In this document: positions 8,298 to 34,423 of the stretch, one piece after another | How positions within the stretch are numbered: the stretch's first letter is position 1 | Layout: each line of letters starts with the position of its first letter | Assembly (NCBI GenBank): GCA_051362555.1 | Contig: CM120640.1 | Coordinates: 22,864,225-22,928,224 of the forward strand | DNA from: Lingula anatina | Taxonomy: Eukaryota > Animalia > Brachiopoda | DNA: 64,000 nucleotides | Direction of reading: 5' to 3' | Program-made: the position numbers and the translations under genes | The notes under the pieces: model-generated | Databases searched by the model: none | What the model saw: the letters and a program-made list of their open reading frames with translations, nothing else | Told to the model about the DNA's origin: nothing

Positions 8298-11200
8298 AAA
8301 TTTTTACTGTTTCCTTCGATTTTATATTTCAAAACAATATTGCACACTTTTAATCGATGTTGTTATACAAGATTGTTCATAGTTCTTTACTTTGGTGTAT
8401 GTTGAGCAGTGATGTAAGTAATCTGTAGCTTAAAATTTGATGTTGAAAGTGTAGTTTTTGGTCGACTTCTCTTTTCGTGGGTATGACTTTTTCGGGAACA
8501 GCCCCAAGTAATAGACTGAAAAATCGACTTTGACATTTACTTTTCAAACCGAGGAGATGGTATGTTTATTAGATAATTATGTTTTATGGCAGCTTAGGTG
8601 TGTGTTTTCTTGTTTTGCCGTTGTTGAACAAAGTAAAACGCGAGAAACGATCGTTCACATCATGTTTCCATCAATAACGTTACCAGCGAAAACGAGGCGA
8701 CGTTTTTCAGATGCTGCGAGAAAGTTAATGATAATGAATAATTTCTGTTTTGCAATAGGTCGTTTTAAACAAAAAGTGGGATGGTAATTTCACTTCTGTT
8801 ATGCTTTTGTACCCGTGAAAAATGTGTAAATAACAAAGTGGAATTGATTAAAGAATTGAATGTCAATCGTTTTAAATGAATCATGAATTTCTTTTATCAT
8901 GATTTCCAATGAAAGCCATTTTAATATAAAAAATCATTGGCGTGGGTTAAAACGCATTTAGAAAGAAAAATACTCTTCAGATGTTGGAATTGAAATTTCA
9001 AATTTCTCCATGCTTTCTTCAGAATTGCATATACCATTTAAAGTAAAACATTTTAAAAGAACTGTAACAAAAAACTAAATGGTACTTCAGTTTTATTCCT
9101 TTTCTTTTTATGAATCTACAATGTTATATATTCATCTTCAGTTTTGCCAGTTTAAGTGCAAATCCTGTCACCTTTTAAGAGTGTTTTTTTCCTTTTTGGT
9201 TACAATTTTGGAAATAGTGCTGAAAGATAAGGCTGTTTTGTCACAAGTTGAAATAGCCCAGGTATTGCTCATGCACAATATATCTTTAATATGTATGTGA
9301 CCTAGCTTGCAGATAGCCTGTATATGTGGTTATTTCTATTTTTAGCTTTAGCTGTTTAAGACTTAAGCACAGTTAGGTTTAAATACATCAGTTACTCTGC
9401 AACTTTCATGCAATCATTTTAGGCTTCATAAAAGTTGAAATAAGCACATATAAAAGGTCACTAAAACATTTTTGAAACTGATGACTTTTGATATTTTGTT
9501 TCAAATTATTGATTAAATTTTAAGGTGAAAATCAGTTTTAAAGGACAAAAATATAAGGTGCAGCAGCTGAAAAAACTCTTTGTAAATTGAAATCAAATCT
9601 AATTGATTTCTGTAAGGCAGTAATGCTGTAGTGGTGAGAGGCAGCAGTATTGATTTTTTTACTGGTGTATGTATGCAAAACTATTAATATTGAATTGTGA
9701 ATGACGTTGGATGGTTATCTATGGGGAAGACGAAAAAGAAAGGAAAAATTCTTGTACAAATAGCCAAATTCTTTGCCTTTTGATTGTCTTGTAACAATTG
9801 AAGTGACAAGTAATGTTTTTATTTATCCTAATTTAAGGTTGTCCTTGAAGCACAAACCATATTATATGCATCTTTTTGAAAGCTACATATATGTTAAGTA
9901 TCACAATTCCTGCTGTTTGTCAGTATAATTTTAACTGTTCTTAGATGTGTTATTATAAATGAGTTCTTATTTATCATTATTATTATCTTTTTCAAACTAA
10001 ATGAGTTTTATATTTATTAAAATTAAAAAAATTAATTTAATGTTATAAATTTAATCTCATATATACTTCATGTGCTTATTTGCCTGCTAATCAGTTATTG
10101 TATGTTGAATATTTCATCTATCAATATGTGACTTTTTATGAATGTAATTTTGTCCACTAATGAAATACATTGCTCACATAATCAAAAATTTTATGTGAAA
10201 TGTGCCTCCTATTTTTGTGACTTGAATTATAATCAAATCGGCTACTTTATCATATGATTTAATTGTCAACAGTTGAATTCTTTTGTTTATAATATATATA
10301 AATGAAATATAAAGTAAAGGAGAGGCTATGATAGGAAAAACTGACAGCTGTAAAATTGCACCTCAAGGGCGGAGTAAGTTACTTTCAGCGAAGGCTTAAC
10401 TTATTTTACTATTCGAGTTACAGCATCCATGTTTTGTTTGATTTAGTCATTACCATCATGTCTCTATGTGGGTCATATATGATAAAGCATTTGGAATATA
10501 AGACAGCAGATGAATATTTGTTGAGTTTTGGATAGTAAGCAGATAGGGCACTAGGAAAAACAATTTGCCATATAACAAATAATGCACAAACAGAAAAGAG
10601 AAATTCTTATACATAAAGGAAGATATTTGATACTGATAATTTTAGTATCACATTACTCAGTTTGCTTCCTTTAAAAATAAATATATACACGTTGCCCTTC
10701 AATACGAACAAGCACATCTTTACTAGTATGTTGTAGATGCAGGTGCCAACCCAACAAAATGTAAGAGACTGCTTTCTCCTTGTCTGCTGAGAATGGTCAC
10801 TATTGCATATTGTGTTACACCCATTTTGTTCTGCAAGTAGACCAAAATAGTTGTGCCCATTGTAAAGAATAAAAACAGTCTCTGATATATAGAATGTGCC
10901 TGTCCCTTCCCGTAGACATGTTCAGCTTTGTCCTGTCGCTGAATTACATCACAGCGGGGTACATTCCAAGTTAGAATTATCAGATTTTGTAAGCCAAGTA
11001 CAAATTTAAGTTACTTTAATGGTAAATTTTGCAAAATGAATTAATAAATAATTAATTAAACAAATAAAATGATTAATAATAAGAAGTAAAATAATGATAA
11101 CTATAAAATAATTAAATAGAATATCAATGACAAAATAATGATAAAATGCTTAAATGAATAAAAATGAATAAAAACAAATAAATTATAAATAATAAAGATT

Positions 11201-11961
11201 AAAAAAGTGTTTTGTATTTTCTTTAGTCAGATAAGAATATATGTTAAGCATTTGATCATTTTATGGAAATTATTTAAAGAAACTATAAGGTGTGGACAGT
11301 GGCCATTATCTAAACGCCTGTGAAATGAAAATAAAATTAACTTTGTCATGTATCCTTCTTGGAATGAATTACTCATGTTTGCCTGTCACTGGAAAGAAAC
11401 CATGTCAGTGCCCGTCTAAGCCTTTCATAAGTATGTTCTTTAAGCGTAATTTTTTATTAGCCTTTGCTAGATGACAGACTTAAACATCATGAGAGAAAAG
11501 AACCTGTCTTAATCATATGATAAATACCTCAAAAACAGCTTATATTTTCTTCTTACAATTACTAGACCCCATGTACCATTGTTCTTTTTTGAAAAAATAG
11601 AACTTTCTTTCAACATGTGAATTCATTACTGCATTATGGATCATGCTGAAATGGTTAAATATATGTAATATGTCATCTGTTTGTAAAATAATCTTTTGCT
11701 CTGAATAAGTGTATGCTTAAATCAAGTTTTTACATAATGCTTTTTAAAGTCATTTAGTTTTAAGGTGTAGTATTTGGATAAACCTTGAAGGGAAATGTGC
11801 AATACAATAAAATTGAATTTTGCTTTTTATTAGGAAATTTTGTTTTGTGGCACAATTGGAAAATGAAGCTCTCTTAGTCTAAAAGTGGCATAATTTATAG
11901 ATATTACCCTGAGACCTTTTCTGTATAGATTGACTCTTTCCAGTGAAGAACTATCATCAAG

Positions 11962-14900
11962 ATGAACAACCAGCAACAGTTTTTACAGCAGCAGGGGCCA
12001 CAGCAGCAGCCACAGCAACATCCGCCATCTGTTCCCCCATTGGTTCAACATCCTCCTAATGCCCAGCAGTTCATTGCAGTGAACCAGGGGGGAGGTGTCC
12101 AGCAGGGGGCTTTGGACCAGCCCCTCATAGGTCAGCCTCTTATAGGACAGCCTATGGTGGGGACCAGTGGTAGCTTTCCAGGTGCTGTGGTGAGCACTGC
12201 TAGTTTCCAAGGAGGAATAAATCTTACTATATCAAATGGTAAGTAAGGAGATTGATTTAGACATACAAGACAGATAGATGGCCTAAGGTCTAGATATCAC
12301 TTTTTCTTTGCATGTCAGATTTGTATGATCATTACAGTATCATGGGTTAGATGCATAAGCCTCGTTATGTTTTTTGTTAATGTGTCAGAATACGTTTAGT
12401 TTTGTACTTTTAGATTTGTTTATGTTTTAAAATTAAGTTTATTTAACTGATCTTTATTTTTTTTAATCTGTATATTTTTAAGTGTTACCTAAAGATTGAA
12501 ATGAGGCAGCTTTGAAAAAAATTATTTTAGATGGCATGCCAGTAAAATGAAACCAGTTTTGTAGTGAAAAGATTCCTTCACTCTATTTTAAGTTGCCCAA
12601 AGCTGCTTTTAAGTTCATGGATGCATATCCTTTTAAATATAGACATTCCTGCTGATTCTGCTGATGTCATAAGTTCGGTAGATATTTCAGTCTTTAGCAC
12701 AATTCATTACATGCTACAGGAGTAGTGCAATAATCATAGAGTTCAATATGATTTTTTTTATCAGCTATTGCCAAAGCTGCCATTATCTAATATCAAAATA
12801 TCAAGAAAATTATGTTAATCAAGAAGAAAAGCTTGAGTAGACAGGTCTTTCAAAAAAGAAAAATTACAACTTTTAATGTTTCAATTAGTTTACATTTCAA
12901 AAGGGAAGATAAAGTTTTATCACATGATTTCTGACTCACTACATTTAAGTTCAGAATAAAGAAATATATCATTTTCACCTCTTTCTGTTTATTCTGTAGA
13001 TAATTTTGGAGTAATAATGCAGTATGAAGATCAAGCTATTTTTTTTTTTTAATAAGAAAGAAAACTAGAATTTGTAGTCGCATTGCGTAGTCACAGAGTG
13101 GGTGAGAACTATCATGAAAAGATTTTTTTTGAGAAGTCAGAAGATACCACACATTTGTGCTTGGAAGCTTTCATTTCTAACATGATTTGATATATAATAA
13201 TAAACTGGCTGTCATGATAGGTGCTTAACTGAAGGGGGTATCCAATATAATGAACCAGCATAAAGAAAATTGTTAAATGCTGTCCCATGTTTTCCTATGA
13301 CAGATAAACATTGGATGGGGAGATATCACAAGTGGGCTTTCCAATTTCTGATATGAAAAGAAGTGAACCAGGAAGTGAATGATATTTTAACCAAACAATA
13401 AGTACGTGGTTGGTTTATGATATTCAGTATAGATTGAGAGAAATTTTCCAGAGAAGAATGTTATCTTTGTGGAACTTGAATTAAAACTTGTAAGTTACTC
13501 TTAACTTGTCACTGAAAGCAGTATTTGTTGATGTATTTTCATTCTCTCTATTACTGGAGTGTTTGCCTATTTAAAAGCATTTTTGAAAATAATACTGCAG
13601 GATGAGCATTTGTGCAAATAAAGATGATATTACAGGGTGAGGAGACCCAGACCCATAATGTGTTAAATTTTTTTACTGTTAGAGGTGATCAGCCCTATTA
13701 TTAACATACCATAGTATGGTATGTAAATTAATTTATGATGCAAAAGGTGATTGGAGAGGAAGCCATTCATGTTGTAGATTGACAAGGCAAAGATGTAATA
13801 CATTAATCAGGGCAGAAATAATAGATATTTTAAGAACATTGAAACATTGACATATTAGTTTCTTACTTTTTTTTAGCAAGTTAAAGGTGCTTTTTGAGAC
13901 GAGTTGACTTTGTAGCAAATCCAACCAAATGCCACCATATAGTTTCAAATAGAATAACTTAAAAAATACCAAAGGACATTGTTATGTATCTTCCAAATAT
14001 ATTTGAACAGATATTTTCTGCTTTCTTTCTGTGCTATATGTATAACCCTGGTTTGTTTTCATTTGAATAATGATGGTATGGTGCATGCATCTGTAATGCA
14101 CCATACATTACTTAATCATATGGCTGACTTTTTCCTACTGGGGGACAGATAAGTAGGTAAAATTTACAATTACAAACAAAAATGTGAAGAAAGTGCATTT
14201 TTAATGTCTTTTATGGCTGATGGACTGATTAATGTCGGTTTATTTTGGCATGCCGACTTTATTTGAGTTGTGTGAAATACTGGTAGTATTGATTTACATA
14301 GGTTAAAGGGAATCTTGCTTCATATGTAACTTAAAGTTTTTAACAAATACTTACAACATTGATAACCTTTACTCTCTTTTCTCCAACTTGGCACTGGTTT
14401 ACCTAAACATGCTCATTTTAAGTCATTGGTTAAGTGCCTGTATATTATGCTTCTTTTATGGCTTCTGTAGTAAAAGTGTTGGGTTTTTCCCCCCAGGGGC
14501 CATCAATATTCGACCCTCTACCAGTGGGAGTGGGGTAGCTATGTCCAGGCCTGATGATGGCACCCCCCTTGTAATCCCTCAAACTGCTTTGGTGGCGGGT
14601 AAGGATCTTTTGGCTGTAGAGTGCTTTTGTAGCACCCACTGCATGTTTTAAGACTAGATAGTCATTCATAGTGATAAATTTTTATTTGTTTTTATTTTGC
14701 CTCTAGAGGTATGGTTTCAGTTTTCTTATTTGTGGGATTTTTAATGCACCAGCTGACTCAATGTTCTGAATATGCCTGGTTATGAGGAATATATATGTTT
14801 TCAACTTTTCAGCCACCATGGGTTCTCAGATGACTCCTGTGATGACTACTTCTGGTCTCCGCCTGCCCACATCACTACAGCCTGGCCAACTGGTCAACCT

Positions 14901-17900
14901 AAAGATTCCCAATGTCAGATATCCACCAGGTGAGGGGTATATCTGTGGTGGTTTACAATAATAATAATAATAATAGAAATAACCGCATTTGAAATATTAA
15001 TAGTGAGACTTTTTTTCATATCTTTGTCAAATGAGAAAACTTCCCAGCATACATAAATTCCTTTTATATTGAAAATGTCTAAATGTTATGCTTTTCTTTT
15101 TCCAAAAATTATGCAGGTTGAATCCAGGTACAACATGGTTCAATCATCTATTAACATAAAAATTTAAAAACGCATTATATTCTAGGCTCTCAAGTAGTGC
15201 TGGCCCAGCAGCCAGTCCATACAATCAGACCGAGTGCACCAGGAGCTCCAGTGGGTGGTACCAAGCCAGTGCAGGCCAATGCTGTACCAGGGATGCCAGC
15301 CCAGAGTGTGTCTGTTCAACCTGCTCAGTCACAGCCTATCCCCCTAGCACCTAATATAGCTCCTCAGGTGCAGAGGACACCATCACCCATCGTGTCCACC
15401 ACCAGCGCCACTAGCACCACCACCTCTGCGGTGGCACCACAGGTCAGTGTGGCACCGGTGGCACCAATCACAGCAGAAACGTCAACTGGGCTGGCAACAG
15501 TTGCACCTAGTGCTCAGACAGACGGTACAGATGGGTCAAAGTTAATAGGAGAACCACAGGTGAAAGTTGACAAAAAGGAGCCCCCAGAGAATGGTGAGAA
15601 AAGTGAGAATAAGATGACAACAACTAATGTAACTACTGCTGGTGCTAGTGCTGTGAACAAAACAGATACAATACCAGGGGATTTTGATGCCATGGACTCG
15701 TTAAAGTGGGAGAATGGGATTGGAATATTACCTGGAAGTGACCTCAAGGTAGGACACGACTTTCATATATACTTTCATAGATCACCCCTTGGTTAAAGAA
15801 ATTTAGCATCAAATGGTTAAATATATCTTATTTGAAACCATTTTCTGGATGTGGATGATATAAACAGTTGTGTCAAAAATAGTAATCAGCCCACATTATA
15901 GTATATTATATTTTGCTTTTGCATGGCCCTTTATATGGATTTTCTTTTATTGATTAATCTTCTTGTTGGTAGTTCCGTATGAATGAATTTGGAGGACTAG
16001 AAGTAGTGACAGATGATGTTGATGTTGAGGGAGAGGATCTTAAGAAGGACATAATACAAGAAGAGGGGATGGATGCTGGGTTTGAAGACTTGGAGGGTTG
16101 GTATATTTTCTGTGCTGCTAAGGTATTCAGACAAATTGTAGTGTCAGCATCCACTGTTCCTGTACCCAGAAAGTAATATGCAAATTCAATACTTCAAGAG
16201 TAAATAAATTGACAAACAACGATAGCAGTGTTGAATTTATGTGCTGTTAATTATTTCATATAAATTGTTTTTTTTTTTTTTTTTTTTTAGCAATATTGTC
16301 TTTTCATTTACAGACATCAAGGAAAAGTTGAGTGTTAGCAGCACTGATGAGATATGTCGGTGTGAAAATTGTGGTTGTTATGGTATTGCCAGTGAGTTTT
16401 GTAATTCTGGCCGATTCTGTAGCAAGTCTTGTGTGGGCATGTATGCTAGCAAGTAAGTGCATCTTGAACAACCTTTGTTTGGAATACGGCAATGTGCCAT
16501 GTTGTCATGTAATACCTGCATGAAACCAAATGCTTTAACAAGGTAACAAGATTGAGTTACTAGTTAAGAAGAAGTGCCAGAAATGTTCAAAATTTCAGAC
16601 TTTTAATGTGAAATTGTTGCTAAAAGCTTACCCGATTGAAACTAATTTTGTTGGCCTTTAAATTTTGTCCTTAAATCTCAATATAATTTTGTACAACTCT
16701 GACCCTTTTAAATAACTCTTTTGCACTTGTAATATCAATTTAAAATTTTACTTGTCATGACCAAAAATTTTTGCCATTCAGAGCTTTCATGTGTGAACTC
16801 CCATTTTAAGTCATATAATGACAGTTTTTCTCTGAACTGATTGTATTTTGATGTACTAAATAGTTTCTTCTTTGATCTCAGATTGAATCTTGCATTGGTT
16901 TGACTATTGCTGTGTAATTGAGTGTTGTGGTTTGAAGAGTCAAACTAAATTTTTTATTATGGCATCTAAACAGTTTCAGTAACATAGATTTAAATGTCTT
17001 TTTAGGAGAGGTCTTCTTGCAAAGAAAGGGCTGATTCCCAAAGCAAACAGCGCTGAAGGATTGAAGCTAAAGAAAAGGAAGAGGGCTATGATGGCTAGTG
17101 TAGGAAAGGAACTTGTCACCCAAGCAAAATTTGCCAAGAGACAGGAAGAAGAGAATGTTGCTGCTAAGACCAATGGGAATGGACCTGGTAAGCAGGAACA
17201 AAAGAATGATGCAGTCATTCAACAAGTTAAACCTAATATTGAAGTGAATAACTCTCTGTATGCCCTATCATCATCTAGAGCTTTAACTTGCAGTTTCAAC
17301 AACTTAAGAGGCAAAGGATGATTAAATGTGAAATGTTTGTTTTGATGGCAAACTATTTTAAACAGTTATGCCTTTTGTTTAAATCATTTGTTTACAGCAT
17401 TAGTACATGTCATGATCTTGGAACTTAGACTGCACCCTGAGGTGTATTAATCAGTAGAGTTTTTGTGTATTGTTGCTTTTAGGAAGAAAAAAGGGTTTTA
17501 ATTGGCAAACTTACATGGAGCAGGAAAGATCAGTGGCTGCACCAGATAGGTTGTTTGTAAATGTAGGTATCAGAATGTGGAATCAGTCTCTAATTATTGC
17601 TTTTGCAATAGTTACCTTTTACATTAAAAGGGCTAAGACTTGCCTCATTGAATTTTTTCAACCTTTCATGATATACAGCATATTCAAAAATCAACAAATG
17701 AGGTATTGGTGAAATGTTGTAGAAGTGTTAAGTTTTCACTTGCTATCATCCACACAGGCTTTTCCACAAAATAAGAATAGCTTCAGAGTTGGTATGAAGC
17801 TGGAAGGCATTGACCCCAAGCACCCATCATTGTACAGTGTTCTGACTGTGGCAGAGGTCTGCGGCTATCGTCTACGCCTCCATTTTGACGGCTACTCTGA

Positions 17901-20900
17901 ATGCTATGATTTCTGGACTAATGCAGACTCTCCTGAGATCTTTCCAGCTGGATGGTGTGAGAAGAGTGACAAAGAACTACAGCCGCCTAAAGGTACATTT
18001 AAGCCTTGATTATCACATCTTCGCTTGTCTCTCATGTTGACTATAGTGTTTTCTTAGCTAGGCTAAGCAAAAGGACTGTGCGCAGCTGTATTCAAGCTAT
18101 ATGATGTGCTAGTCAGCCATTTTAACATATTTATTCTTGTATCAGAGCCATTGATATCAAAAGTGGATAAAGTATCAACATAGCAGTGTTTTAGTTATAT
18201 TTTTTAGCACTGTGAAGCAAATGGGCATTATATTGCCCAAATACAAGGTGGTTGGTTTTTGACACTTCTGTATATGGTGCATTGGTCTGACCTCTGTTTA
18301 TAAGCAACTTTTAACCCAGTTGAAATAATATGGCTGGTGGTTGACTTTGAACACCATTGTTTCCACTGTCCTTTTTTTGTGCACAAAATTTATTTTGTGG
18401 TGAATTTGCACATATGTTTTGAAAAATCGATGCAAGTCACTTCTGTTTTACCAATTCTGGTGGAGCTTGTGTGGTGGAACATGCACATTAACTTTGAACC
18501 AATTAGTGGCGCAGTATTATACTAGCCTTACTTTTCCCTCTTAGCTAACCAGTAGGTTGGGTTGCATTAACTTTTCATTTCAAACAAAACTTAACGTCCT
18601 TTTCCATTTTTTCCATTGATGACCAACCCAACAGGGCTTGGTAAGTCAAAACTTAGTTTTGTAAAAGCTAGGCAACATTTTTTTTTTTTTCTTTTTTTTT
18701 TTCAAAATGAAATGAGACAAAATAGACTTGAATATCTGGTATTTTCCCAGTCAAAAATATTTGAACATTCTTAAATGGTTGAACATTAAAAAAAAACAAA
18801 CTTAGTACTAGGCCACTGCCGTGAAAAATAAGACATATGATACAAATAAATGTGAATCCACAATAAATCCTTGTTGTTATTCCTGATCTCAATTACAACA
18901 GAACAAAAGTAACTCTTTGGTTTTCACTGGTTGAGTTTCCTTGCTATGTAATGTATTGTATGAATAAAGGTAATTTGAGTCAATTATTTAGTATTTGACA
19001 GGTAATCCTGATTGATAACTGTCTTATTAATTATGTGAAGTTATAGTACATGTACCAATGCTGTTCTATTTAGGATTTACACCACAGACTTTCAATTGGA
19101 ATCACTACTTGAAGTTGTCCAAGGCTTCACCGGCACCAAAACATCTTTTTAGTGTACAACAAGCAGCTGTAAGTGGATTTTTGTGTTAACACATATTCTT
19201 ATAAAATCTTCCTTCCATGGACTTGAGCATTGTCAGTCAATTTGCAGATTGCAGCCAATTTTACTGTGGTGTTACCATTGATTGGCATTATGCAGACTTG
19301 AATATTGTCAGCATGTTAGTTGATTTCAGTCAATTCTTTCAATTAATGTCTGCTTACGTCTGATTTTACGTGCAGATATAAATTATTCATTATCATTTGT
19401 TCTGCCTAGAATACAGTTATGTTCAAAATTTTTCAATATCTTTCCAAAACTTTTTTTTTTTTGTAAAATGATATTGCTTTTGTTATAATACAGTTTTAAC
19501 ATGCTAAACTCCAATGTGTAGCATCACTGGCAAATCAGAAGAATTTTCAGTATTGGCAATGTAAAAAACAAAGCTACTAATCAATATCTTGTAATGCTAT
19601 AAGAAGAAAAATGAGATGAAATATTAGACTAGAAGCCATTAAGAAGCCTTTACTGCTAATCATTGAAAATGCTATTTGTATCGTTTACACATCTTGACAT
19701 ATTTCTTTCCTTTACCTTAGTCTGTTACACCACATGGCTTCAGAATAGGATTAAAACTGGAAGCTGTAGACAAGAAAAATACAGCTTTAACTTGCGTTGC
19801 CACAGTGGCAGATGTGGTTGGCGATCGTCTTCTAATCCATTTCGATGGTTGGGAAGACATTTATGACTACTGGTGTGAACCCACTTCCCCTTACATTCAC
19901 CCTGTGGGATGGTGTCAAGAGAATGGAAAGGCACTCTCACCACCAAATGGTTAGTTCTTCAACTCACATTTTCTGTGGTGTTTCCACCATTTATCTGGAA
20001 TGTACCCTATCAATTATTAAAAAAAAATTTTTAGATGTTGAAAAAACAGTTAAAACAATTTATAACAGGAAATTGTAATTTCTCAAATGGGAAAATGGAA
20101 CATTTTTTTAGGTTTGAATTTTGGATTTATTTCTAATGATCCCAACAAACTGTTTTTTTTTTTTTTTTTTCTCTAATATTCAGACTGTAAAGATGTGTCC
20201 AGTTTCACGTGGGAGGATTATTTACGACAAACCAAATCCCAACCAGTTCCCTCTAGAGCATTCAAAGCTGTAAGTATATGTCTGCAAATGAGAATATTAT
20301 GGTAGCAAGACTTGTTGTATGTCTGTATTAACATTTTATTTTTTCATTTCTTTGTTTAAAATGTTCTAGAACCAACAAAGATTATTATTAGATTGATTTG
20401 AATGCTTAGCACTAGATCATAGTTTTTATTTTGAATATGTGAGAGAAAACACCAGTCTGAATCACCAGGTTACTATTGTAGGAAAATGTTTGCTCTAGGT
20501 TTGGGAATAACTGATCATCTGTTGGCTGTGTATGTGTGTGCATAAGTATGAAATTATATATGATTCCTTCTTTTTGTTATACCATTGTCATTTAGAAGCA
20601 TCTTTAAAGATTTTAGTGATACTAGTCCCTTATTTTTCTTTGTTTGAAAAGGGATTCTGATTTCCATGAAAAGTTAAGTATTACTAGATGGTAATTGCTA
20701 AGATTTACAGCTAGGGCAACCTCACTTATATACTTTAAGTACCCGAGCAACCCTGAATCGTCAAAAGACACTATTGTCACACTTCAGCGTCCCCCTCTGA
20801 GATTTGAAGCTGGCTACAAACTGGAGGCAGTTGACAAGAGGAACCCGATCTTGGTACGGGTGGCTACAGTAGCTGAGGCTGAAGATTACCGTGTAAAGCT

Positions 20901-23688
20901 GCACTTTGATGGCTGGTCTGATGTGTATGATTACTGGGTGGACGATGACTCCCCAGATTTACACCCTGTTGGCTGGTGCAGCAAGACAGGACACCCACTG
21001 CAGCCACCTGTTGGTGAGTTGATGGTGGAATTGATTATGGACTCAAAGAAAAATTAAACTTTTATAAAGAAGAGTGCTAATATTTTCTGACTTAGACATT
21101 GATTTGTTATAAATTTGCTAAAGTGGGGATTTTAGAAAATGGTAATCATGGCAGTTAATAACTAGACATACCAGTGATGTCTTAACAATGAAAATAACTT
21201 GTATGTTGGACAGAGATGGCTAGAGTGCATTATTATGATACTTTCAACTATTTTTAGGTCCTGCAGACTTAATTGTGAATGAAGATGGCAGTGGGTGCCC
21301 CACTCCAGGCTGTAAGGGGATTGGACACATCAAGGGAGCCAAGTACATTGGACATCACAGGTGGGTGATACACTGTTATTGTACAGAAAGAAACATGGGT
21401 GTTCATTTGTGAACAACAAAATTTCTGTCTGATTAAAAATTGCTCTTATAGTAACTGTTTTTATTATGTACTAAATGAAGAAATGTTTTTTGTCTGCAAA
21501 TGGAAAGGTACTTTAGGAGATATAATTTCTATGTGGTTAAATTTTATGACTACTCTATTAAATTAACAGGTTTTTAAAATTATTTTTAAATGAATCCAAG
21601 GTCTTTGGGAGAACACTGTCACAGTTGCACAAACTTGAACATTTACTGAACTCTTTTCTTTCAGTGCTTTTGGGTGTCCATACTCTAATCTGAATATGAA
21701 CAAGGAAACCGCACTGGCAGACAGACTGGGACCTACGAGAACAGAGCTGGCAGAGATGAAAGCCAGAAAACTGAGTATTTCTCCTGATGAAAAGTGAGTT
21801 TCACTCACACAACAGTATATTATTAAAATAACAACTTTTGTAAAAAGCACAGTGTTAGGTTTAACTAAGTTGCCCTTATGTTAAAAATTCTGCGTTATGT
21901 TCATGGTTTTTTCCAGCACAGAAAAGAAATATACATAGTTTTACAAAATATAACAAAAAACTACAAGATGTGTAACACCCTTATACACTTGTATAACAGT
22001 AGCCATCTCTCTTTCAGTTTACATGTAAATAAAGATGTATATTAAACAAATAGAAATGACCAGCTATGCTTACTGTATTTCATGGTTGAAGCACTAAAAA
22101 AATGTCCATTGCTTGCCATTTTAATACTTGGCCAAGTAGCTGCAGCAGTATATTATCAGTATTTTTTTTTTTTTTTTTTTTTTTTTTGAAACACTTCTTT
22201 TGCCATTTACAAGACTGTTTTAAGTTGCTAATTTATTAATCTGGTTGAAGGTATTGACAGGTTTGAAATGACAAATTGTTCATAAAGAAGTGACGCAAAT
22301 ATGCAAATATTCCCTTTCATGTAGGAAGTGCCCCACTTCTGGTTGTGATAGTTCTGGCCACATAACAGGCAAATACACCTCCCATCACCGCATCTCTGGC
22401 TGCCCCCTGGCAGAACAGAACAGAATCAAAATGGAGGAAGAGGGTTTGATGAACGGAACAGGATACGAGAGGGATGATGACTATCAACCTGTGCGTCTTA
22501 CATACAAAAAGCTGCACAACAAAATACCTGGGAAACGCGGAAGAAAAAAGTAATATTGTAGCTCTAAAATTGAAATTTATTAAAATGGAAGCATTATTAT
22601 TATTATTATTATTATTTTTTTTTTTTTTTTTTTTTTATTTAATTTTTTGCAATGTATTAATGCATAAAGAAGTCGCTAGCTATTATCTTGGAAATTTGAG
22701 AAAGGCTCATTTTAGAATGAATTTGAAAAGAAATGTATATAGATGTATTATAATTGTATATTTTGATGTTTTAGGCATAAATTCCATGGAAACAGGCGTT
22801 TACTGAAGGAGGAATACAGAGAACCTAAAGGTACACCTCCTTTGGGATAAGTTATGATTAATTATTTTAATACAGCAACTCTTAAAGGGGAATGAAACTT
22901 ACGTTGTAGAATGCATCCAATGCTATGTTTCACATGCTTATCCAATAGACCAGAGTGTATTTAAGAGCTACGTAAAAGGAGTGCACTGCATCAATGTAAA
23001 AATGACATATTAATCTTCAGTCACGTACAGGGCATTACAGAGATGCCCTGCTTTATAAAGTCTACTCCTCTATTCCAGACATGCATGCCCTCCACCAGGG
23101 TATCCACCAGTCAGTGTTTATGCCCCCGTCAGCCCCTACTCCCAACAAAGACATGCCCCTGTGCTGGGAGCAACATTCCAAACTGTTGCCTGGTGTAGAC
23201 AAGATCCTGGGGGGCCAGGTGGCCAAGTGGAGCATTGATGATGTGGCCAACTTCATCAGGACATTGCCAGGATGTATGGAACAAGCTAATGTCTTCAAAG
23301 AAGAGGTGAGGGCTTTAGTTTTTTTACACAGTTCATTTTGACAGTGTACGACAGTTCAGTTTAAGTACAGATGCTTTGTTCAGTCATAAGCTTTTGTATA
23401 TTTCTTCATTTATTTAATGTTAACTACTTACAACTTATATTGTATTTGCAGTGGACCAACACTTAAGAATTATTTGCTACATATTGTCTTTATTCAGTAC
23501 TTATGTGATAATGGGCGTGCTTTGTATCAAGTAACAAGTTTAATATATTCGTTTTACAGCAAATTGATGGCGAAGCCTTCCTATTACTGAATCAGGCAGA
23601 TATTGTGAAAATTATGAACATAAAGCTTGGCCCAGCTTTGAAGATATACAATAGCATCGTCATGTTTAAGAAGACTGTTGAATTATAG
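11962..23688 (+). CDS. L3MBTL3: Lethal(3)malignant brain tumor-like protein (L3MBTL1/3/4 family): Q/P/A-rich N-terminus, FCS zinc finger, 3 MBT repeats, 2 C2HC zinc fingers, SAM domain
   Basis: Exons 11962-12238, 14497-14598, 14813-14929, 15186-15748, 15973-16096, 16314-16452, 17006-17187, 17483-17562, 17758-17992, 19074-19168, 19721-19949, 20184-20269, 20788-21013, 21258-21360, 21665-21793, 22325-22549, 22775-22830, 23079-23305, 23560-23688 (TAG), all GT-AG with compatible phases. Motifs: LPGSDLKFRMNEFG; [12 protein letters not shown]; [25 protein letters not shown]; [20 protein letters not shown]; [20 protein letters not shown]; [19 protein letters not shown]; [19 protein letters not shown]; [29 protein letters not shown]. 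Invertebrate co-orthologue of L3MBTL1/3/4, so the symbol is approximate. Confidence 0.95.
13912..14048 (+). repeat. Dispersed repeat fragment, copy 2 of 3 (L3MBTL intron)
   Basis: CCAACCAAATGCCACCATATAGTTTCAAATAGAATAACTT..GACATTGTT..ATTTGAACAGATATTTTCTGC, similar to the copies at 5870 and 37548. Confidence 0.75.
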
Positions 23689-24573
23689 GTCATTGGTGGC
23701 TTGAAAAAGGTGCTTAGGCCAACACCAACTTGTTTTTACAGAGACTTTTTCGCCATATTGCCAGCTTGGCATTTCATAATTTAGATATCATATGGAGTAT
23801 ATAGAAAAGAGGAACAAGACTGCTCAAGTAGGACGTAGAGTGCTTGTATGTGATTAGACTTCTTTAATCTGGAAAGGAAGATAGAAGTGCTTCAGTTTCC
23901 ATTGTTTTTGCCTTTCACTGCTTAAATCTTTATGCAGAGGTGTCTTAAATTGGAATTATGCTGCACATTTGTATATACATTTTAGTATGTACAGCATTCA
24001 CAGTTGTGGAAGTAGAAGCAGTACCTATTAAATAGAATCATCAATATCAGTGAGAATGTGCTTTAATTTTATTGGGAGAAAACTGATAATGTTTTACATT
24101 TATTTACAAAACAAATCTTTTTCATTGGTTTATTATACCATTTCTATCTATATGAATTATAGCAATATGTAAAGGGAGTACTACTGGTATTTTGAACCAT
24201 TGTGCAATAAACTGTCTCTAGATTATCTCGAGGTCTCTGCTTGTAGTTTTGCATAAAGGAATTGGTTGGTTTATGTAGTGGGTGTCAGTTTAGGACATGT
24301 CTAAACAATTCAACCACTTACTTGGTTATATTAGGATTTCTATAGTAACTACCAGTTTGTTTCCTTTTCAATGAAATCAAGTTATCATGTTTCTCTTTTG
24401 ATGCTTGATAGTAATCTACATATTTCATTGTAACATTTTTTGAAGCTATTATTTAATTATTTCTCTAAGAGAGATTAAGTTTATATATACTTGAGGGGAT
24501 TTATTGATGACAATTGTAAATATTTGTGGAAGAGGTGACTATCAATCTTTTCTCTGTACATATCTAGATAACC

Positions 24574-25860: not shown

Positions 25861-28800
25861 TCACTTCAAGTATCTGAAATTAAAAAGAAAGAAATTTTGG
25901 TCAGTTTGTCTAGCTAACAAAATTAAACACATTTTGGATAGACACATAATAAAAGTCCCCCCACCAAATTCTCTGCACACACATGGCCACACACAAATAA
26001 ATATAACCTGGCTCCACAAGTGTGAAAGAAGAATAAAATTGCCATAACTATTTTCAAGGTCTGCCCCATTAACATCAAGATACATTTACATTATGTAATG
26101 TGTAAGAAAAATGTGAAGTGCAAATAAAAGGGAAAATTAGGATGAAGGAATTGCTTTTGAGCTAGAATATATGTTCCTCAATAATTTAGTAAAACTATTT
26201 TTCTTGTATGAAGAATTTGGAATGGCAAAAGTGGGCTGTGCAAGGATGACAGAAAGTTTGCACATGTGACTGAATGTGTGCAGATTTAAAGTTCAGATTA
26301 CAAAGAAGACAAGACTGGTAATGATGGGTTCATGATTGAAACATTAGGTGACCAGTACAGGATATAATACTTAAAGGCTGCACACAAATCAAAAAAAATT
26401 CTCCACAAACATGCTTCTGTTTAATGGTAAAGAAATGACCAAAAGAGAAACTGTGATCACCCAAGGCAGTATTTGTTTGGGAAAAATTCATTCGTGGTAA
26501 AGAAAGCATGGTGTGAGGTTGACTGTGGAAAAGTAATGTCTGTACACAGATGGTTCACACTCTCAATAACTCGGTCATAGGGTGAGGGTGGGGATGACAA
26601 TGTGAACAGCTATCAAACCTGCAAACAGCCCTATCACCCAAGCTAAGAATGTTTTTTATTCAGGATGTGGCTGATAGCAGCTTACCTTCATCCTGACTGC
26701 TGGAGAGAAGACAACACACAACAATTTATATCAACCACAGACTTATAAAAACACATAAAACAATACAAGACAAGACAACAAAGGGGAAAACAATGATAAT
26801 CTAAATTGCCCTCTGAGTGTTACCTTTGTTAAAAGTTGTTAGAATGTTAATATGTACACATGATGATAATATGGAAAAGGAGCAAAGCATACATTTTACT
26901 CAGGGAAAAGAAAGAGTAGAACAGTGTCCTGGGTAAAAGATACCACAGTGATGTTTAGTAACAGCTCAATGAGATTGATGTCTCAATTCCTGTTGTAATA
27001 ATGCAAAGAACTGCCTTCAAAAACAGGTGAATGGTGATGGCATTTTTAAATTACCAACCACATTACAAGTCATCTAGCGATATCAAAGGGAAAACTGAAA
27101 ATGTGCAGTGTAAGTAACATGCAACTTTTCAATTTATTTTGCTGTTTGCAAGCTAACGCAGTGTTCCTAATGTAATATTTAACAACATTCATGCAGCGTG
27201 TCCTTACTTAGCTGCCCAGTCCGTCCTTCCAGTGACCTGCACCTGCTGCCCTGACCGGACACCTGCCGAATTCTTATTAAGTGACGGTAGCACTGTGGGC
27301 TGCTGTCTTTTCCAGCCTCCAGCTCCATAATCTGAAAAAAATAAGGGTTAACAAGAATTAGGAAGAGATCAATGTAAGAAACGTGTATTAAAATCAGGCA
27401 ATTCAAAAGTCCTCTTTATTAATCAACTTTGATTTACAAATCAATCCTGAACTTCAGGCAGGATTTTGAGCATGGTAATATTAGCACGAAAAATGAGCAT
27501 GCTACCCTTGTAAATCATGAGCTAGAGGATAACATTAAGGAGATATGCACAGAAACTAAATATAAAAGGCATTTAACCAAAAATGTGCCAACTAAAACAA
27601 AATAAAAAGGCATGACTCACTGTTTTTATTTGCAGAGCCCAAGAAGGAGGGGACATAGCCTGTTGTAGTGCCCCCTGCATTAGCTGTGAAGGAAGAAAAA
27701 CAAAAAGGTGCAACCATCATAAGCAGAACAGACACCAAAATGAAATTAATTAAATTATCCATTATGTAATACACCGTTTAAAAAAGACACGTCAAAGCAA
27801 TCCAAAATAAATTAAATAAAGACACAAACAACATGACAAACAATACCTGAAATATCACATCAAAATAGTTTTTTATTATTACTATTTTTTTTTTTTTTTT
27901 TTTTTTTTTTTTGCATGTAATACTTCTATCAAAGGTATATATCAAAGGCATAAGTTTATAGAAAAACCTTTAACACGTGAACATTGCTTTTGCTGTACAG
28001 CACCTAGCTTGTTTAACCCAGCAGTCACTGTTGTTGTTACTTACCATTATTTGTCCTGTTAATGTTCATGGTCCCTACATTGGCTTTATTTGTCCCCCAA
28101 GTAGAGGCACTGTATTTGGCACTTTCTCGTGTGTTGATACCTTAGGGGAGAGAAAGTAAAATGGTGAATACTGCTTTAAAGTTAGATTATCTATTTAAGC
28201 TTTACATATTTTTAATCTTTATTTTTGATTGTTCCCAAACACCTTAAGAAAATGGTCAGACTCTTCAATGTGCTACTTCTTTACAACTTTACACATATTC
28301 TGGCTATTACACCAAGATGGTGATAACAAATGAGTTTTGGCATAGCTTGATTACTACTGTCAGTTACCTTACCTGGTAGATACCTGGCCTTGTTCAAGTA
28401 ATGTTGCTTTGCTGAAGATGCTGAGGATCTCCCAGAGCCCATTCTACCAACAGCACCAACTGGCTTGTGGACAGGCTTCTCTTTAAGACTACTGCAATAC
28501 ACATAGTATGAATAGATATAATATTCAACTGTTTTATTTAGAATTTCAATGCACAAATAAACCAAACTATAATATTCACCTCCTTCAAGCAGTGGTTTGA
28601 AAACATCTACCAAAAGAAAACTTACTTTATCGATCTTTATTGTTAACATGCAAGATTAAATTGTCACAACAGTTTATATTATAAATGTTGCTGATGGCAT
28701 TGGCCAACGCACATGAGAAAAATTACAAACATGCCAAAAAACTGTCCGGTTTACACCTGCCATTACTAACTAGCCTTAATGAGGACTAATCTTGTGCACA

Positions 28801-31800
28801 TTTCCATAGACACCATTCACCATTATTTACCTCAAGAAGTCATCATCCGTCTGTTTCTTTCCTACATGAGCCAATGGCTTTTTGTTTATACTAGAACTAA
28901 AGTCCATGTCATCCCAGTCATCCCAGCTGTCATGACCAGCACCCCAGCGCTTCCGTGATGTACCACTCTTTTTAGTTGTAGTAAATTCCTGCAAAATAAT
29001 AAATAAAATAAAATAAAATAAAATAAAATAAAATAAAATAAAATAAAAACATGCTCAATGGGAAAACACCAAAAACTTATTTGACTTCAACACTTCAGAA
29101 AACACAAGTAAAATAATTTTTGGAAATGTTCCATTATTTGTAATAATTTTTTTAAGCATAATACAAAATGCATACATCTTCACATCATGAATACATTTAG
29201 GTGCATTGGTCAAAACAAATGTAAAAACAAACTTACATTTGTTGTCTGTTTCTGTGCTTGGTTAGGTATGGCAGGTAACACATTCTGTTTCTGCTCTTGT
29301 AAAGGCCTGTGCACTTGCTGGGGGGCCTGATGAGAAGACACAGTGTTCCTCTGTTGCGGTGTTTGTGTTGTATTAACTCCAAGATTCTGACCAACTTGGA
29401 AATAAGGATACCGAAGTGCCTGACTTGCTGTTGGCCGTTTCTTAGGGTCCCAGAGCAAGAGATCTCTCATGAGACTGATAGCGTCATTGCTAGCATTTGG
29501 GATAAGTGTCTTAAGATTGGTGGGAACACATTGTGGCCACCTGAAGTTCATGGCTGCTGCTAATTGATGTCCCTCTGGCCAGTCCATCTGAATGAATCAC
29601 AGACAAAAAATTCATTAACAACTATAAAAATTGAATCTCATTAAGTATGATAAATGGTAATTATTAACATACATTAGAAAAGATTTATAAAAATTGATGA
29701 ATGACAACTTACAAATCAGGCAAAAAAACAACAGATATGAATTAGTTTGAAATCAAACTTTTTTGACATCTAAGGAATAATTACAATTTCAGGTTAACAC
29801 AAACCTTTGTTGGCGTGCCTAGGACAGAGCAGATTTTAAAAATCTCGTCAATTTCACTACTTCCAGGAAAAAGAGGGCGTAACGTGTACAGTTCCGCCAT
29901 GATACACCCAACTGCCCACATGTCAATAGGGGAGCTGTAATTGGTGGACCTGAGAAGGACTTCTGGGGCACGATACCTGACAGAAAAAAATATTTTCAAT
30001 TTGAATATTTGAACCATATTTTGGTGAATTTTTTTTAGCATGTACAGTGATAACTTATATTTCAGTTCTCTTTAGGTAAGGAAATCTTGAAACACTTTGC
30101 CAAAGTGTGCCATATGCTTAATGACATATGTTAATATAACTGTAACCAGAAAACAAATCATTACAACTATTACAATATTGGTAGTACATAAATACCATAA
30201 AAATAAAAGAAAAATGTTTCATTTGCATACCAATTTTTTTCAAACTCCAACTATTATATCAAGCAAGATTCTCAAAATCTGAATGACAATATGAAACAAC
30301 AGCAAATACACAAGGTGCTAGGTTACAAAACCAAGCTGCTGCGGCGCCATGGCTACAACCAAGCATTTTTTCCTGATAAGGTCAGTTCAGTTTCTTGTAT
30401 TATATATCACCACCCCAACACCTACAGTAAGTGCTTAGTATTAAAAATCAATAAATATAAATCATAGCTTGCACCATATACAAATATTAGTATTGTTAGC
30501 AAAAAAAAAAAAGAAAAACTAACCATCGTGTAGAAACATAATCTGTGTAGGGAGGTCTGGAGCGGATTTCTCTGGCCAAGCCCAAATCCGCAATTTTTAC
30601 CAGTTCAGGCCCCGTGCATAGGAGGTTTTCAGGTTTCATATCTCGGTGGAAATAACCTGGACAGTTATAAAGCAAGGATTATAAGGTGCACCATGCACAC
30701 AAATTGCAACCCACCACATGAACCCATGTGTGCCACCGAGTGTTGTTGGGAGCATGTCTCAGCATTAGTTACGACCACTTTTTGTTTACAGTAAACAAGG
30801 ATGGTAGCCATGGCAATTGAAATCAGCAAAAAAATTCATTGAGTATGATCACACAATGAAACCATCTGGGACTTTCAGTAATTACTGTAATTGATTTGCT
30901 GTGGTCATATCATAGACATGCAACCAACTTAATCCGGTTTTTAATTCATTATCTGTAAAGCGAAGCAGTCTCTCATGCTCACAATAATTTCCACAAAAAC
31001 CAAAAAGATGTATGCTGGCTGATTGCCAAAGCCTTGGGGATGGTTAATTATTTTCATTCCCTGGGGACTCACAGTGTGCATGTGAAACCATTTCCCTTTA
31101 CTGTGCAACACACACTATGCATTAGCCCATGCCACACACTGAATACAAAGACATCATTTTTACCATCTAGTGGACACATAGTCAGTGTAAGGTGGCCGTG
31201 ACCGTGTCTCTCTGGCCAAGCCAAAGTCTGCTATTTTAACTAAATCTAGGTCTGAGGTCAGAATGTTCTCTGGCTTTAAATCTCTGTGGAAAAAGCCTGT
31301 TAAAAAGAGCAACATTTAACAGATTTATGCTACTTCAATATTTATTCATAATAGACTGGAAAAGACTGTTTGTCGTACTCAATTTTCTCAATAAGCTTAC
31401 CTTGAAAAAGTAGAAAAATGAAAAAAGGAAAATAAATGAATCGAAGAAAGACAGGCAGAAACAAAGAAATATCTTACCATGTTTATGCATAAAAGCAAGC
31501 CCCTGCATCACCTGATATGTAATGTTTCTAATAGCAGATTCAGGAAAGAGTTTGTCTCTGAAAAAGTAAAAGAAAAATGTTACTATTAAGATTTCAAAGG
31601 TCATAAGTCAAAAAAAAAATCAAGAGAAAAAAGCTGGATGGGTATCACTGATCATTCCAGTAAAAACAAATAAGCCAAAACTGGGAAGTTCACAGAAAAT
31701 AGGTATATCATACAGTGTTAATAAAAAAACAACACATCATGTAAAATCATTTACTTGAATCATATATCCAGCTGACATTTAGCAGAATACTAAGTGTCTC

Positions 31801-34423
31801 AGATAGCAATGTATGATTTATCTTTAATAATACTGAAGTTAATTTTTTGCACACTTATTGCAGTTGTCTTGCTAACAGGGAAGGACTGAAATTGACAGAT
31901 ATAACTTAAAAATTCAACAAGTGTGTGTTCAATCCACCAAAACATTAAACAAAAGATTGTCTTCATATATCACTCATACTGTTGTAACTGTTATTGTGAG
32001 TTTTGGATACATGTAAATAACCAGACAGGTATCAATATGTATGAGCAAGCATCCAGCACCCTTTTGCCTACCGTCTCCCCTGACACTGACAACACTAATA
32101 CAATTTCCAATTGAGCAGATATTGATTTGCCAGACTGTGTGCATGGGTGTGTGTCACATACAGGTTAATGTGCTGCAAATCCAGCCGATCAATGCAGTGA
32201 GTGATGTTGCTGTCCGATATTAAAACACTTTGATTGAAGTAGTTGGTGGAAAAAAACAATTCCCAATGGTGTTGAAGGTGCCAGGCAACTAAGAATAATG
32301 TATTTTACTCTTTATCAAATTACCTTTTGTTTCTTTTAAAACGGGTTGTTTTATAACTGACCTACTTGTTATTATAAAGGGATATATTTTCAATGGAGTT
32401 TATGATCAATATTTCTCGAATGTTTGATTTTGTTATACTTTGAACAAAGATCTTTTTTGCGACAGCACAAATAAGCTGAATAATCAATAAAAAGTCATGT
32501 TATAAACTGACTGTTCAAAATGAAACATAATAACATATATTGCTTTCTAATACCAATACCAGTGCATCATTACAGTTTGCAATACACTATTCTTAATATA
32601 TTCTCACCTCGATTTCATCATGTCATATAAATTCTCCTTCATGAATTCAAAAACAAAAAACAGTTGATCATTTTCTCTGATTACTTCTTTCAACTTGACT
32701 ATATTGGCATGGTTCAACTTTCGTAAGGACTGAAAGAACAAAAAAAATTACTGCATAAAACATGCTATCAATATGTCAAAATATCAAAACACATTTAGTG
32801 TAAATAAATTTTTCAATAATATTTTTACACACACACACACACACACACCAACTACCTTATGGATTTTTTCATGTATTTCATTAATGATAAATATATAAAT
32901 TGATTCAAGTGCTTTTGAAAAAAAATTAACAAAGTGGTAAATTAAGTAATCATGCTAAACCTACAATTAAGTGGGTTCACCAGCTTTAAGGAATTAAAAT
33001 TAAACAAGCACTGAAGCAGTGACACAAAGTAAGGTCAGACTGGGCATGATAAAGTGAATTTTGATAGTTTGCCACCCATTAATTCCCTGGGTACCATGTC
33101 AACACTGTTAACTAAGGACAAAATGGTCACCATTCATGCCGACTTCTATCTGTTTGCCAATGGTATTAGGTTTTGTGTTTCTATGTACCTATGGGTAGAC
33201 TGAATAACCTACATTTTGCCTTCAGCATACCTATGATGCACAATTGGCTATACAACTCTGTCTAAAAAACTGTCAACCATCAAAGGAGCATCTTGTTGTT
33301 GTGTGAGCCAAGGACAAGGATTATACCATTATTTCATTATAATATCATCAAGAGAAATGTCTAATATCTAGTCTTTTAATCTTATCCATAAGTGCTTCAG
33401 TAGATCTCCTAATCCGTCTGACGTAAAAAAAAAAAAAACGAATTGGCAAATAAATTCACAATGATTCATACTGTGCACAAATACTTTACATAAAAAGCAT
33501 AATAAATTCTAAAATTGGAAATTAAAAAAAAAAAAAATTATCTCACAGCAAAAGAAGAAAATTAATCAGCTGTAAACCCTGTCTCCATAACAAACACCAC
33601 TCAAGGTATCCAAGAATCAATCTATATTAATCCTCAAGTTACACCTGGTAATTATGAAAATAGCTTCAGGTAAATCACCATATCTCTGGCTCCAATGCAG
33701 CTAATCATGATGTATTATCCCGTGGAAAAATCCATTTTCTCATCAAAGCCACAGAATGCTTGAATGCTCTTTTTCAAAAATACTTACAAACGTATAAGAT
33801 GGGTTCAAAAAAAAAAAAAAAAAAAGAGTACACACAAACATGATGACATATAGGGAAAAACCAACACAGTGATAACTTTATAAAAAAGAAAATCTTTCAA
33901 TTTTATCACTTACCTTGACCTCCCTTAGATTTAAGCATTCGTCCCACGAGTAGTACTTTTTCTTCATTCTGAATTTATATAAAAAAGGATTGTACAGGAT
34001 TAACAAAATCTATAGTGCTTCAAATACTTGATATAGAGAATAAGATAACATCAGTCACCAATTTCACCATTATAGATTAAAAGCAAAATAATAATTTTAT
34101 TCTATGTAGCTTTTCCTACAACAAACTGGCTTATATCAGTTCTTACTGGTGTAACGATATTTCAAATAAAAAACCAAAAACCAAAAATGAAAAGGTATAA
34201 ATACAGTTTAAATTAAGAAGGAGTTAATGAATTTGTAAAATTAATACTTAACGTCAGTTAACTCTACTAACAAAATAAAAAATCTGAAAGGACAAATGAG
34301 AGGTAATTAGCACAGCACTTACTTTTTAATAGCCACTTTTTCCCCTGACTCTGCTGCAGTGGCCAGTAATACACTGCCATATGTCCCATCTCCAAGCTGT
34401 TTTGAAATATTGTAACGATTCAT
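25861..34423 (-). CDS. MAK: MAK/ICK (CILK1, RCK family) serine/threonine kinase with duplicated activation-segment exon
   Basis: Exons 34423-34323 ([23 protein letters not shown]), 33968-33914, 32729-32608, 31557-31478, [31296-31164 OR 30656-30524], 29976-29805 ([16 protein letters not shown]), 29587-29237, 28988-28831, 28491-28373, 28140-28045, 27683-27621, 27331-27208 (..GRTDWAA), 25873-25861 (KYLK*). The TDY activation motif, KQHYL..RYLPG and C-terminal GRTDW.AKY are hallmarks of MAK/ICK. All phases are compatible. Confidence 0.95.
26686..26699 (-). other. Candidate 14-nt cassette microexon in the last coding intron of MAK/ICK
   Basis: tgtgtgttgtcttctctccag|CAGTCAGGATGAAG|gtaagc: pyrimidine tract, CAG acceptor (NAGNAG) and near-consensus donor. 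Confidence 0.45.
29001..29048. repeat. (AAAAT)n repeat forming the pyrimidine tract of a MAK acceptor
   Basis: Direct inspection; lies just upstream (on the minus strand) of the acceptor at 28989-28991. Confidence 0.85.
30524..30656 (-). CDS. MAK: MAK/ICK alternative exon B (HRD-DLG-TDY), 133 nt
   Basis: tccag|GTTATTTCCAC...CGATG|gttagt; encodes [45 protein letters not shown]; phase 1 in, phase 2 out. Confidence 0.88.
31164..31296 (-). CDS. MAK: MAK/ICK alternative exon A (HRD-DFG-TDY), 133 nt
   Basis: aacag|GCTTTTTCCAC...AGATG|gtaaaa; encodes [45 protein letters not shown]; phase 1 in, phase 2 out. Confidence 0.88.
32826..32848. repeat. (CA)n microsatellite
   Basis: Direct inspection. Confidence 0.9.

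Follow-up and report, generated by a model that had tools for sequence, protein, structure and literature searches.

A tandem pair of mutually exclusive exons spans the catalytic loop and activation segment of a MAK/ICK-family kinase in Lingula anatina

Can a single gene of the MAK/ICK family offer two versions of its catalytic loop and activation segment through a choice of exons, and would the two resulting kinases differ in function? This question is raised by a 64,000-nt stretch of the genome of the brachiopod Lingula anatina (assembly GCA_051362555.1, contig CM120640.1, positions 22,864,225 to 22,928,224; hereafter the window, to which all Lingula coordinates refer), which contains a MAK/ICK gene on its minus strand. 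The nearest relatives of the encoded kinase carry the names MAK, ICK or dyf-5. The family is characterised by a TDY motif and by ciliary roles in vertebrates, as described in the available part of PMC11273301; judging from this family membership, the Lingula kinase may also act in cilia.

Gene model, exon pair and expression

With either of two alternative exons, here called A and B, the coding region consists of 13 exons, all on the minus strand. The first, counted from the ATG (34323..34423), encodes the Gly-rich loop and the VAIK motif, and is followed by exons of 55 nt (33914..33968) and 122 nt (32608..32729, matched by loose read ends past 31559) and by a constitutive 80-nt exon encoding helix alphaE (31478..31557). 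Exon A (31164..31296) and exon B (30524..30656) come next, separated by a 507-nt intron (30657..31163). Downstream lie a constitutive 172-nt exon with the YRAPE motif and helix alphaF (29805..29976), a 351-nt exon that ends the kinase domain (29237..29587, matched by loose read ends before 29805), and six tail exons within 25861..28988 (28988-28831, 28491-28373, 28140-28045, 27683-27621, 27331-27208, and 25873-25861 with the stop). The labels beta7, beta8, alphaE and alphaF and the roles of K127 and N130 follow standard kinase nomenclature.

Translated with exon A, the model is identical at 528/528 residues to RefSeq XP_013413843.1 (isoform X2), and with exon B it is identical at 528/528 residues to XP_013413842.1 (isoform X1). 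The exon pair had thus already been machine-annotated, and the residue differences between the two RefSeq isoforms are confined to the ten sites at which A and B differ. Both isoforms match Pfam PF00069 at residues 4-284, and the remainder is predicted to be disordered (pLDDT <50 across most of residues 291-517 in the AlphaFold model of isoform A), giving an N-terminal kinase domain followed by a long tail of low structure.

Two features of the tail exons and one neighbouring gene deserve mention. In the last intron, a 14-nt stretch resembling a micro-exon (26699-26686, minus strand) is preceded by a pyrimidine-rich AG and followed by GTAAG; if included, this putative micro-exon would exchange the conserved KYLK end for a short acidic one. 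A tandem acceptor, CAGTAG, is found at 28494-28489 (minus strand), of which RefSeq takes the first AG; use of the second would drop one Ser. A convergent gene on the plus strand (approximately 11900-23800) encodes MBT repeats (Pfam PF02820 at 20821-21021, E 3e-31) and, by eye, a C2HC finger and SAM-like exons, a set of features that we presume to be that of L3MBTL proteins.

Exons A and B agree in length (133 nt), in phase and in having AG/GT ends; 91 of their 133 nucleotides are identical (68%). Each encodes residues 120-164, beginning just before HRD and ending with STRW, and 10 of these 45 residues differ (121, 126, 131, 133-137, 144 and 150). Exon A encodes F121, L126, I131, T133-S134-D135-L136-D137, a DFG motif and T150, and exon B encodes Y121, M126, L131, C133-T134-G135-P136-E137, DLG and I150; both contain TDY. 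At identical residues, 22 of 33 codons differ. An initial annotation of this DNA had described two intact exons with valid splice sites and identical phases that differ at 10 of 45 residues and at many synonymous positions, which agrees with our comparison. Its proposal of an old tandem duplication with purifying selection on both copies is supported by saturated synonymous divergence between them (pS 0.93) against a pN of 0.12. No third copy was detected by blastn within the window. Translation likewise confirms its prediction for the two other splice forms: joining A to B stops the frame after residue 172, at the ninth codon in B, and skipping both stops it after residue 171.

Nine Lingula RNA runs were found by species label, and junctions were counted in eight of them, from three studies, using 6-26% of each run and requiring three reads from two start places per junction. 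All four junctions named in the initial annotation as the ones to look for were present, namely 31478>31296 (22 reads) and 31164>29976 (23) for exon A, and 31478>30656 (21) and 30524>29976 (23) for exon B, amounting to 45 reads for A and 44 for B. Among these 89 junction reads from eight runs, no A-to-B or skip-both joint reached the three-read threshold, under which rare or decayed RNA could escape. Regarding the earlier description of the exons as obligately mutually exclusive, the reading frame bears it out, but the reads cannot separate exclusion at the level of splicing from decay.

Both exons are used to varying degrees, with A:B junction reads of 0:13, 10:8, 1:1, 2:0, 2:0, 9:6, 9:11 and 12:5 in runs X1 to X8, respectively. 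At the upstream junction alone, run X1 yielded no reads for A and eight for B (Fisher p 0.0014 when compared with all remaining runs taken together, the run having been chosen post hoc), and permutation tests of heterogeneity across runs gave p 0.023 upstream and 0.051 downstream. This shows, on small read counts, that exon usage varies between samples; because mates may count twice and the tissues are coded, it is not proof of tissue specificity. The four variants listed inside exons A and B are all synonymous. None is listed at base 30583, which creates the DLG motif, at a depth of up to about nine reads (run X1), and DLG is also present in RefSeq isoform X1.

Junction reads for both exons, together with the two RefSeq isoforms, refute the reading that one copy is an assembly artefact or a decaying pseudo-exon. 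With a DNA identity of just 68%, splicing of both copies in three studies and only synonymous variants in the exons, we give this reading practically no credence. The Lingula pair is a real, expressed and old pair of mutually exclusive exons in a MAK/ICK orthologue, with one exon per productive mRNA.

The cassette in other lineages

A corresponding exchange is found in RefSeq proteins of the nemertean Tubulanus polymorphus, of which isoforms X1, X4 and X5 carry Y121, T134 and V150, and isoforms X2 and X3 carry F121, S134 and T150. Isoforms X1 and X2 both have 577 residues and differ at seven sites, all within residues 121-150, and this pattern in the protein isoforms points to tandem exons in this gene as well. 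Two metagenome contigs (L001 and L002) contain a MAK gene whose exon sizes of 101, 55, 122, 80, 133, 133 and 172 nt are those of Lingula. On L001, the tandem copies (10170-10302 and 10332-10464) are split by a 29-nt GT-AG intron; the first has F121 and DFG and the second Y121, T134 and DMG, which is the same order as in Lingula. Without the exon, the kinase domain is identical at 219 of 241 residues to that of the bryozoan Watersipora, with which it clusters at 99/93, suggesting that this gene is likely bryozoan. An 11-nt perfect inverted repeat (10108-10118 and 10519-10529 of L001) flanks both of its alternative exons.

At the level of annotation, as distinct from genomes, no second version was found in Babylonia (five isoforms), Littorina (seven) or Mercenaria (three), nor in oysters (among the 15 of 35 members listed), mussels (13 members), Branchiostoma (among the 15 of 20 members listed) or three decapods. 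The annelid Owenia is represented by a single record. Its exon (DMG, Q153) is placed with the second bryozoan-like exon at weak support (SH-aLRT 83), a hint that the cassette may predate the three phyla.

None of the 28 other metagenome loci contains two HRD exons. A profile search of 1.84 billion representatives, which detects only pairs whose intron reads through in frame, returned, among its best 150, six proteins that were matched in two or more stretches. Just one of these (P0001, from the L001 gene) represents a tandem exon pair; the others are repeats, duplicated domains or chance matches. The MAK genes of L003-L005, L007, L009, L010, L013-L017, L021, L023, L024, L028 and L029 break after PPYTD, inside the segment that forms one exon in Lingula, and resemble the rotifer records P0029 and P0096. 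A scan of prokaryote genomes yielded bacterial kinases and one short MAK-like contig (L031). The MAK-like segment of the latter (407-532, 77% identical) lies on a 2.3-kb contig of a bacterial MAG and is likely eukaryotic contamination.

What the exchange changes in the kinase

HRD, K127, N130, D143, G145 and TDY are identical in exons A and B. In both, TDY occupies residues 157-159 of the activation loop, the same position as in zebrafish Mak according to the available text of PMC11273301. To judge the differing sites, 177 distinct segments from all proteins collected served as background. T133 of exon A occurs in one of these segments (Cys in 169), D135 in two (Gly in 168) and L136 in two, and L144 of exon B occurs in six (Phe in 169); the remaining six differences (121, 126, 131, 134, 137 and 150) are common. 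In the background, 1.3% of pairs are separated by 10 or more differences. As far as this sequence comparison goes, the unusual changes are those in the beta7-beta8 turn of exon A, at the position of the MAPK ED site, and in the DLG spine residue of exon B.

In the AlphaFold model of isoform A, residues 131-134 and 138-141 form strands and residues 135-137 the turn between them, and the fold matches that of CDK2 (TM 0.9 of the target). Neither the 60 best sequence matches nor the Foldseek rows listed, both topped by CDK2, included a solved MAK/ICK structure. Residues 135-136 align without gaps to E160-D161 of p38alpha, the ED site on the beta7-beta8 turn, and exchange of this site between p38 and ERK2 shifts docking-peptide affinity, according to the accessible portion of 10.1101/2022.08.23.505039. 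We found no evidence for the use of a MAPK-type docking groove by MAK/ICK kinases. The residue that distinguishes DFG from DLG belongs to the hydrophobic spine, and the L180F mutant of Nek7, which converts DLG to DFG, has an activity similar to the wild type (excerpt of PMC2807034), whereas in the inactive state of Ror2 the DLG motif is displaced (excerpt of PMC3492919). The MAK records P0167, P0221, P0238, P0268, P0493 and P0548 (butterfly, Owenia and others) likewise have DLG or DMG instead of DFG, and the presence of this change in several MAK lineages indicates that it arose more than once in the family.

The initial annotation had anticipated two catalytically distinct kinases. This remains unproven, because HRD, K127, N130, D143 and TDY are the same in both exons, and the Nek7 result likewise speaks for a neutral exchange. 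Instead, since the ED-site position and spine residue 144 change, we think it probable that the gene produces two active 528-residue kinases with the same catalytic residues that differ in docking and ease of activation, not in chemistry. Exon A places Thr-Ser-Asp-Leu where nearly all relatives carry Cys-x-Gly-Pro, in the beta7-beta8 turn, by which docking selectivity is set in p38 and ERK2; exon B retains the usual turn and replaces Phe by Leu in the regulatory spine. Against such tuning stand, besides Nek7, ten other MAK records (among them one labelled as butterfly and one as plant) in which DLG was seen without a second version, the first exons of the nemertean and bryozoan-like pairs, which keep C133 and G135, unlike the odd turn of A, and the presence of DFG in both Tubulanus exons.

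Some of these observations also fit functionally equivalent duplicates, which would stay intact only because each enters about half of the transcripts and has to encode a working kinase, whose differences are tolerated drift and whose frame makes double inclusion harmless. The identical catalytic residues, the prevalence of most differences among orthologues, the roughly 1:1 use in runs X2, X6 and X7, the lack of conservation of the unusual residues across phyla and the neutral Nek7 exchange all agree with this. However, synonymous saturation implies long retention, over which one would expect the loss of a redundant copy; usage differs between runs, and A has three residues that are rare among the 177 segments. 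Equivalence of the two exons is therefore unlikely in our view. We regard it as more doubtful still that one exon (B with DLG, or its bryozoan-like counterpart with DMG) encodes a kinase of low activity, or one activated in a different way, which damps the other. A non-Phe spine residue does occur in the second exon of both genes for which DNA is available, and the displaced DLG of inactive Ror2 would suit such a switch. Yet Tubulanus has DFG in both versions, DLG or DMG is the sole version seen in several MAK records, e.g. that of Owenia, run X1 contained only B among its 13 junction reads, and the Nek7 mutant argues for activity with either motif.

The Lingula exon pair can be compared with known exon swaps in kinases. 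According to the supplement of PMC8373072, as far as it was available, CAMK2D resembles Lingula in having homologous alternative exons within the kinase domain that include HRDLK, but these comprise 24 residues from alphaE to HRDLK, without beta7-beta8, DFG or the activation loop. MAPK8, MAPK9 and MAPK10 (JNK1/2/3) and MAPK14 (p38alpha) are CMGC kinases with tandem alternative exons of equal length, as in Lingula, but the exons encode 24-27 C-lobe residues after the activation segment and leave HRD, DFG and TxY constitutive. FYN (FynB/FynT) shows a tissue-regulated swap in the kinase domain, with paralogues keeping one exon each (PMC9741552, in part), but it affects the SH2-kinase linker and the beginning of the N-lobe (PMC8373072). 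All 14 HRDL places in the available PMC8373072 supplement belong to these six genes (CAMK2D, FYN, MAPK8, 9, 10 and 14), none of which swaps DFG or the activation loop, while the Lingula cassette exchanges HRD, beta7-beta8, DFG and TxY in one piece. In the same human tandem-exon catalogue, MAK, ICK, CILK1 and MOK have no entries and HRDI and HRDV do not occur; since 9 of its 32 DFG places were examined, it may hold a kinase with another spelling of the catalytic loop. The available supplement text of PMC9741552, which is short and may lack the fly list, gave no match.

In the vertebrates, MAK and CILK1/ICK belong to the same family and are alike in this segment except for a few sites, but are two genes. 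A parallel between the exon pair and this gene duplication had been drawn in the initial annotation; it is weak, as L/M126 matches but the paralogues differ at just 4 of 45 residues (in three of three pairs). The Lingula exons, with 10 of 45, have diverged more than vertebrate MAK and ICK, and at other sites. T150 is present in some vertebrate ICKs but also in a fish MAK, and residue 126 is M in both nemertean exons and L in both bryozoan-like ones.

No paper on this exon pair was found in the literature outside subscription journals, with matches judged by title and opening of the abstract, although the database MetazExp may hold the Lingula event as a row. What is already known are the two automatic RefSeq models; the region exchanged is unusual, and its recurrence in two other phyla is new. 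The pair offers a natural two-allele experiment on whether MAK/ICK kinases have a MAPK-like docking turn and on the effect of DFG to DLG in a CMGC kinase.

Exclusion and origin of the cassette

As the A+B and skip forms are out of frame, with stops that in both lie upstream of the last junction by over 900 nt, decay would remove both. Among human clusters of such exons, 60% have lengths not divisible by three, and in 9% the distance from donor to branch point is below 50 nt (available part of PMC5740500). The 29-nt intron of L001 lies below this limit and would itself be too short to splice. The Lingula A-B intron (507 nt) is not too short for splicing; of all 12 introns in the coding region it has the highest GC content (0.40 vs. 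0.22-0.32 in the other 11), and its last AG and a branch-point-like site lie 103 and 112 nt before the acceptor of B, respectively. Steric exclusion through another branch-point-like site, 38 nt from the donor of A, was set aside because AG dinucleotides intervene between that site and the acceptor of B. The intron contains four GCATG motifs of the Rbfox type, which is not significant (p 0.055; TGCATG p 0.18).

A 12-bp RNA helix is predicted between 30815-30804 and 30356-30345 (minus strand), enclosing exon B together with the branch point predicted for it. Among 11 neighbouring intron pairs it ranks first in strength; it was equalled in 12 of 1000 shuffles (p 0.012, uncorrected, best of three tests), and has a pair probability of 0.85-1.0 in a 600-nt fold. 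A second helix partner is weaker (-17 vs. -26 kcal/mol), and no competing helix formed in the local fold. Being the best of three tests and without covariation, the helix is a lead only. Docking-site/selector switches of the Dscam type rely on a single site that pairs in turn with the selector of either exon, with compensatory changes in relatives; in Lingula, one strong helix is predicted around B. Exclusion in Lingula would probably be enforced by nonsense-mediated decay, perhaps aided by the looping out of B.

We lean towards a single origin of the cassette in an early lophotrochozoan. The same exon, with the same boundaries and order, is duplicated in the two genes for which DNA is available (Lingula and L001), and in all three pairs one exon has Y121 and T134, a combination found in 6 of 177 background segments, and the other F121 without T134. 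The Y121+T134 exon is the second in both genes with DNA. The phylogenetic signal is mixed: none of the 11 branches of the exon tree was starred, and orthologous exon clades (p 0.34 and 0.12) and species pairs (p 0.36, 0.39 and 0.41) alike withstood the AU tests. A four-way comparison of distances did not improve on background pairs (fractions 0.50 and 1.0). Informative sites were likewise divided, with two matched and one crossed for Lingula-Tubulanus, two matched and two grouping by species for Tubulanus-bryozoan, and one of each kind for Lingula-bryozoan. The Watersipora model carries Y121 although it falls with the first bryozoan-like exon.

Independent duplication of the same exon in brachiopods, nemerteans and bryozoans retains a considerable probability, if somewhat short of even. 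Convergent tandem exon duplication is common between human and fly orthologues (PMC9741552, in part), the species-pair clades survive the AU tests, and residues are shared within pairs, i.e. L126 and L141 in the bryozoan-like and M126 in the Tubulanus pair. Such sharing could also reflect gene conversion, however, and in the convergent calcium-channel cases described in the same source every one of the ten events concerns a different exon, as opposed to the identical exon, boundaries and order in two genes and the threefold split into F121 and Y121+T134 found here.

In its most specific form, a single origin would mean one duplication on the stem shared by brachiopods, bryozoans and nemerteans, confined to that group and kept since the Cambrian, with a lock that differs by lineage; we offer this only tentatively and consider it unlikely as a whole. 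If true, an ancient splice switch would exchange the docking turn along with the regulatory spine and the activation loop in a single cassette, locked by a too-short intron in bryozoans and by an RNA helix and decay in Lingula. Should the cassette be truly absent from molluscs and annelids, it would add a rare shared character at the genome level to the unresolved spiralian tree, in which, according to the available parts of two 2026 studies, relationships among phyla are unsupported and, in one of them, few genomic synapomorphies are expected (PMC13271739, PMC13674499). One exon pair cannot settle this tree because loss and convergence are both common. With the cassette in three phyla, the question is nevertheless cheap to test, as one tblastn search scores existing genomes. 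Eight single-exon frames (P0477, P0478 and P0483; P0487, P0495, P0503, P0517 and P0543) carry the bryozoan-like L141 and fall into two types, one with F156 and the other with Y156, I131 and DFGQ, which may be the paired exons of other bryozoans.
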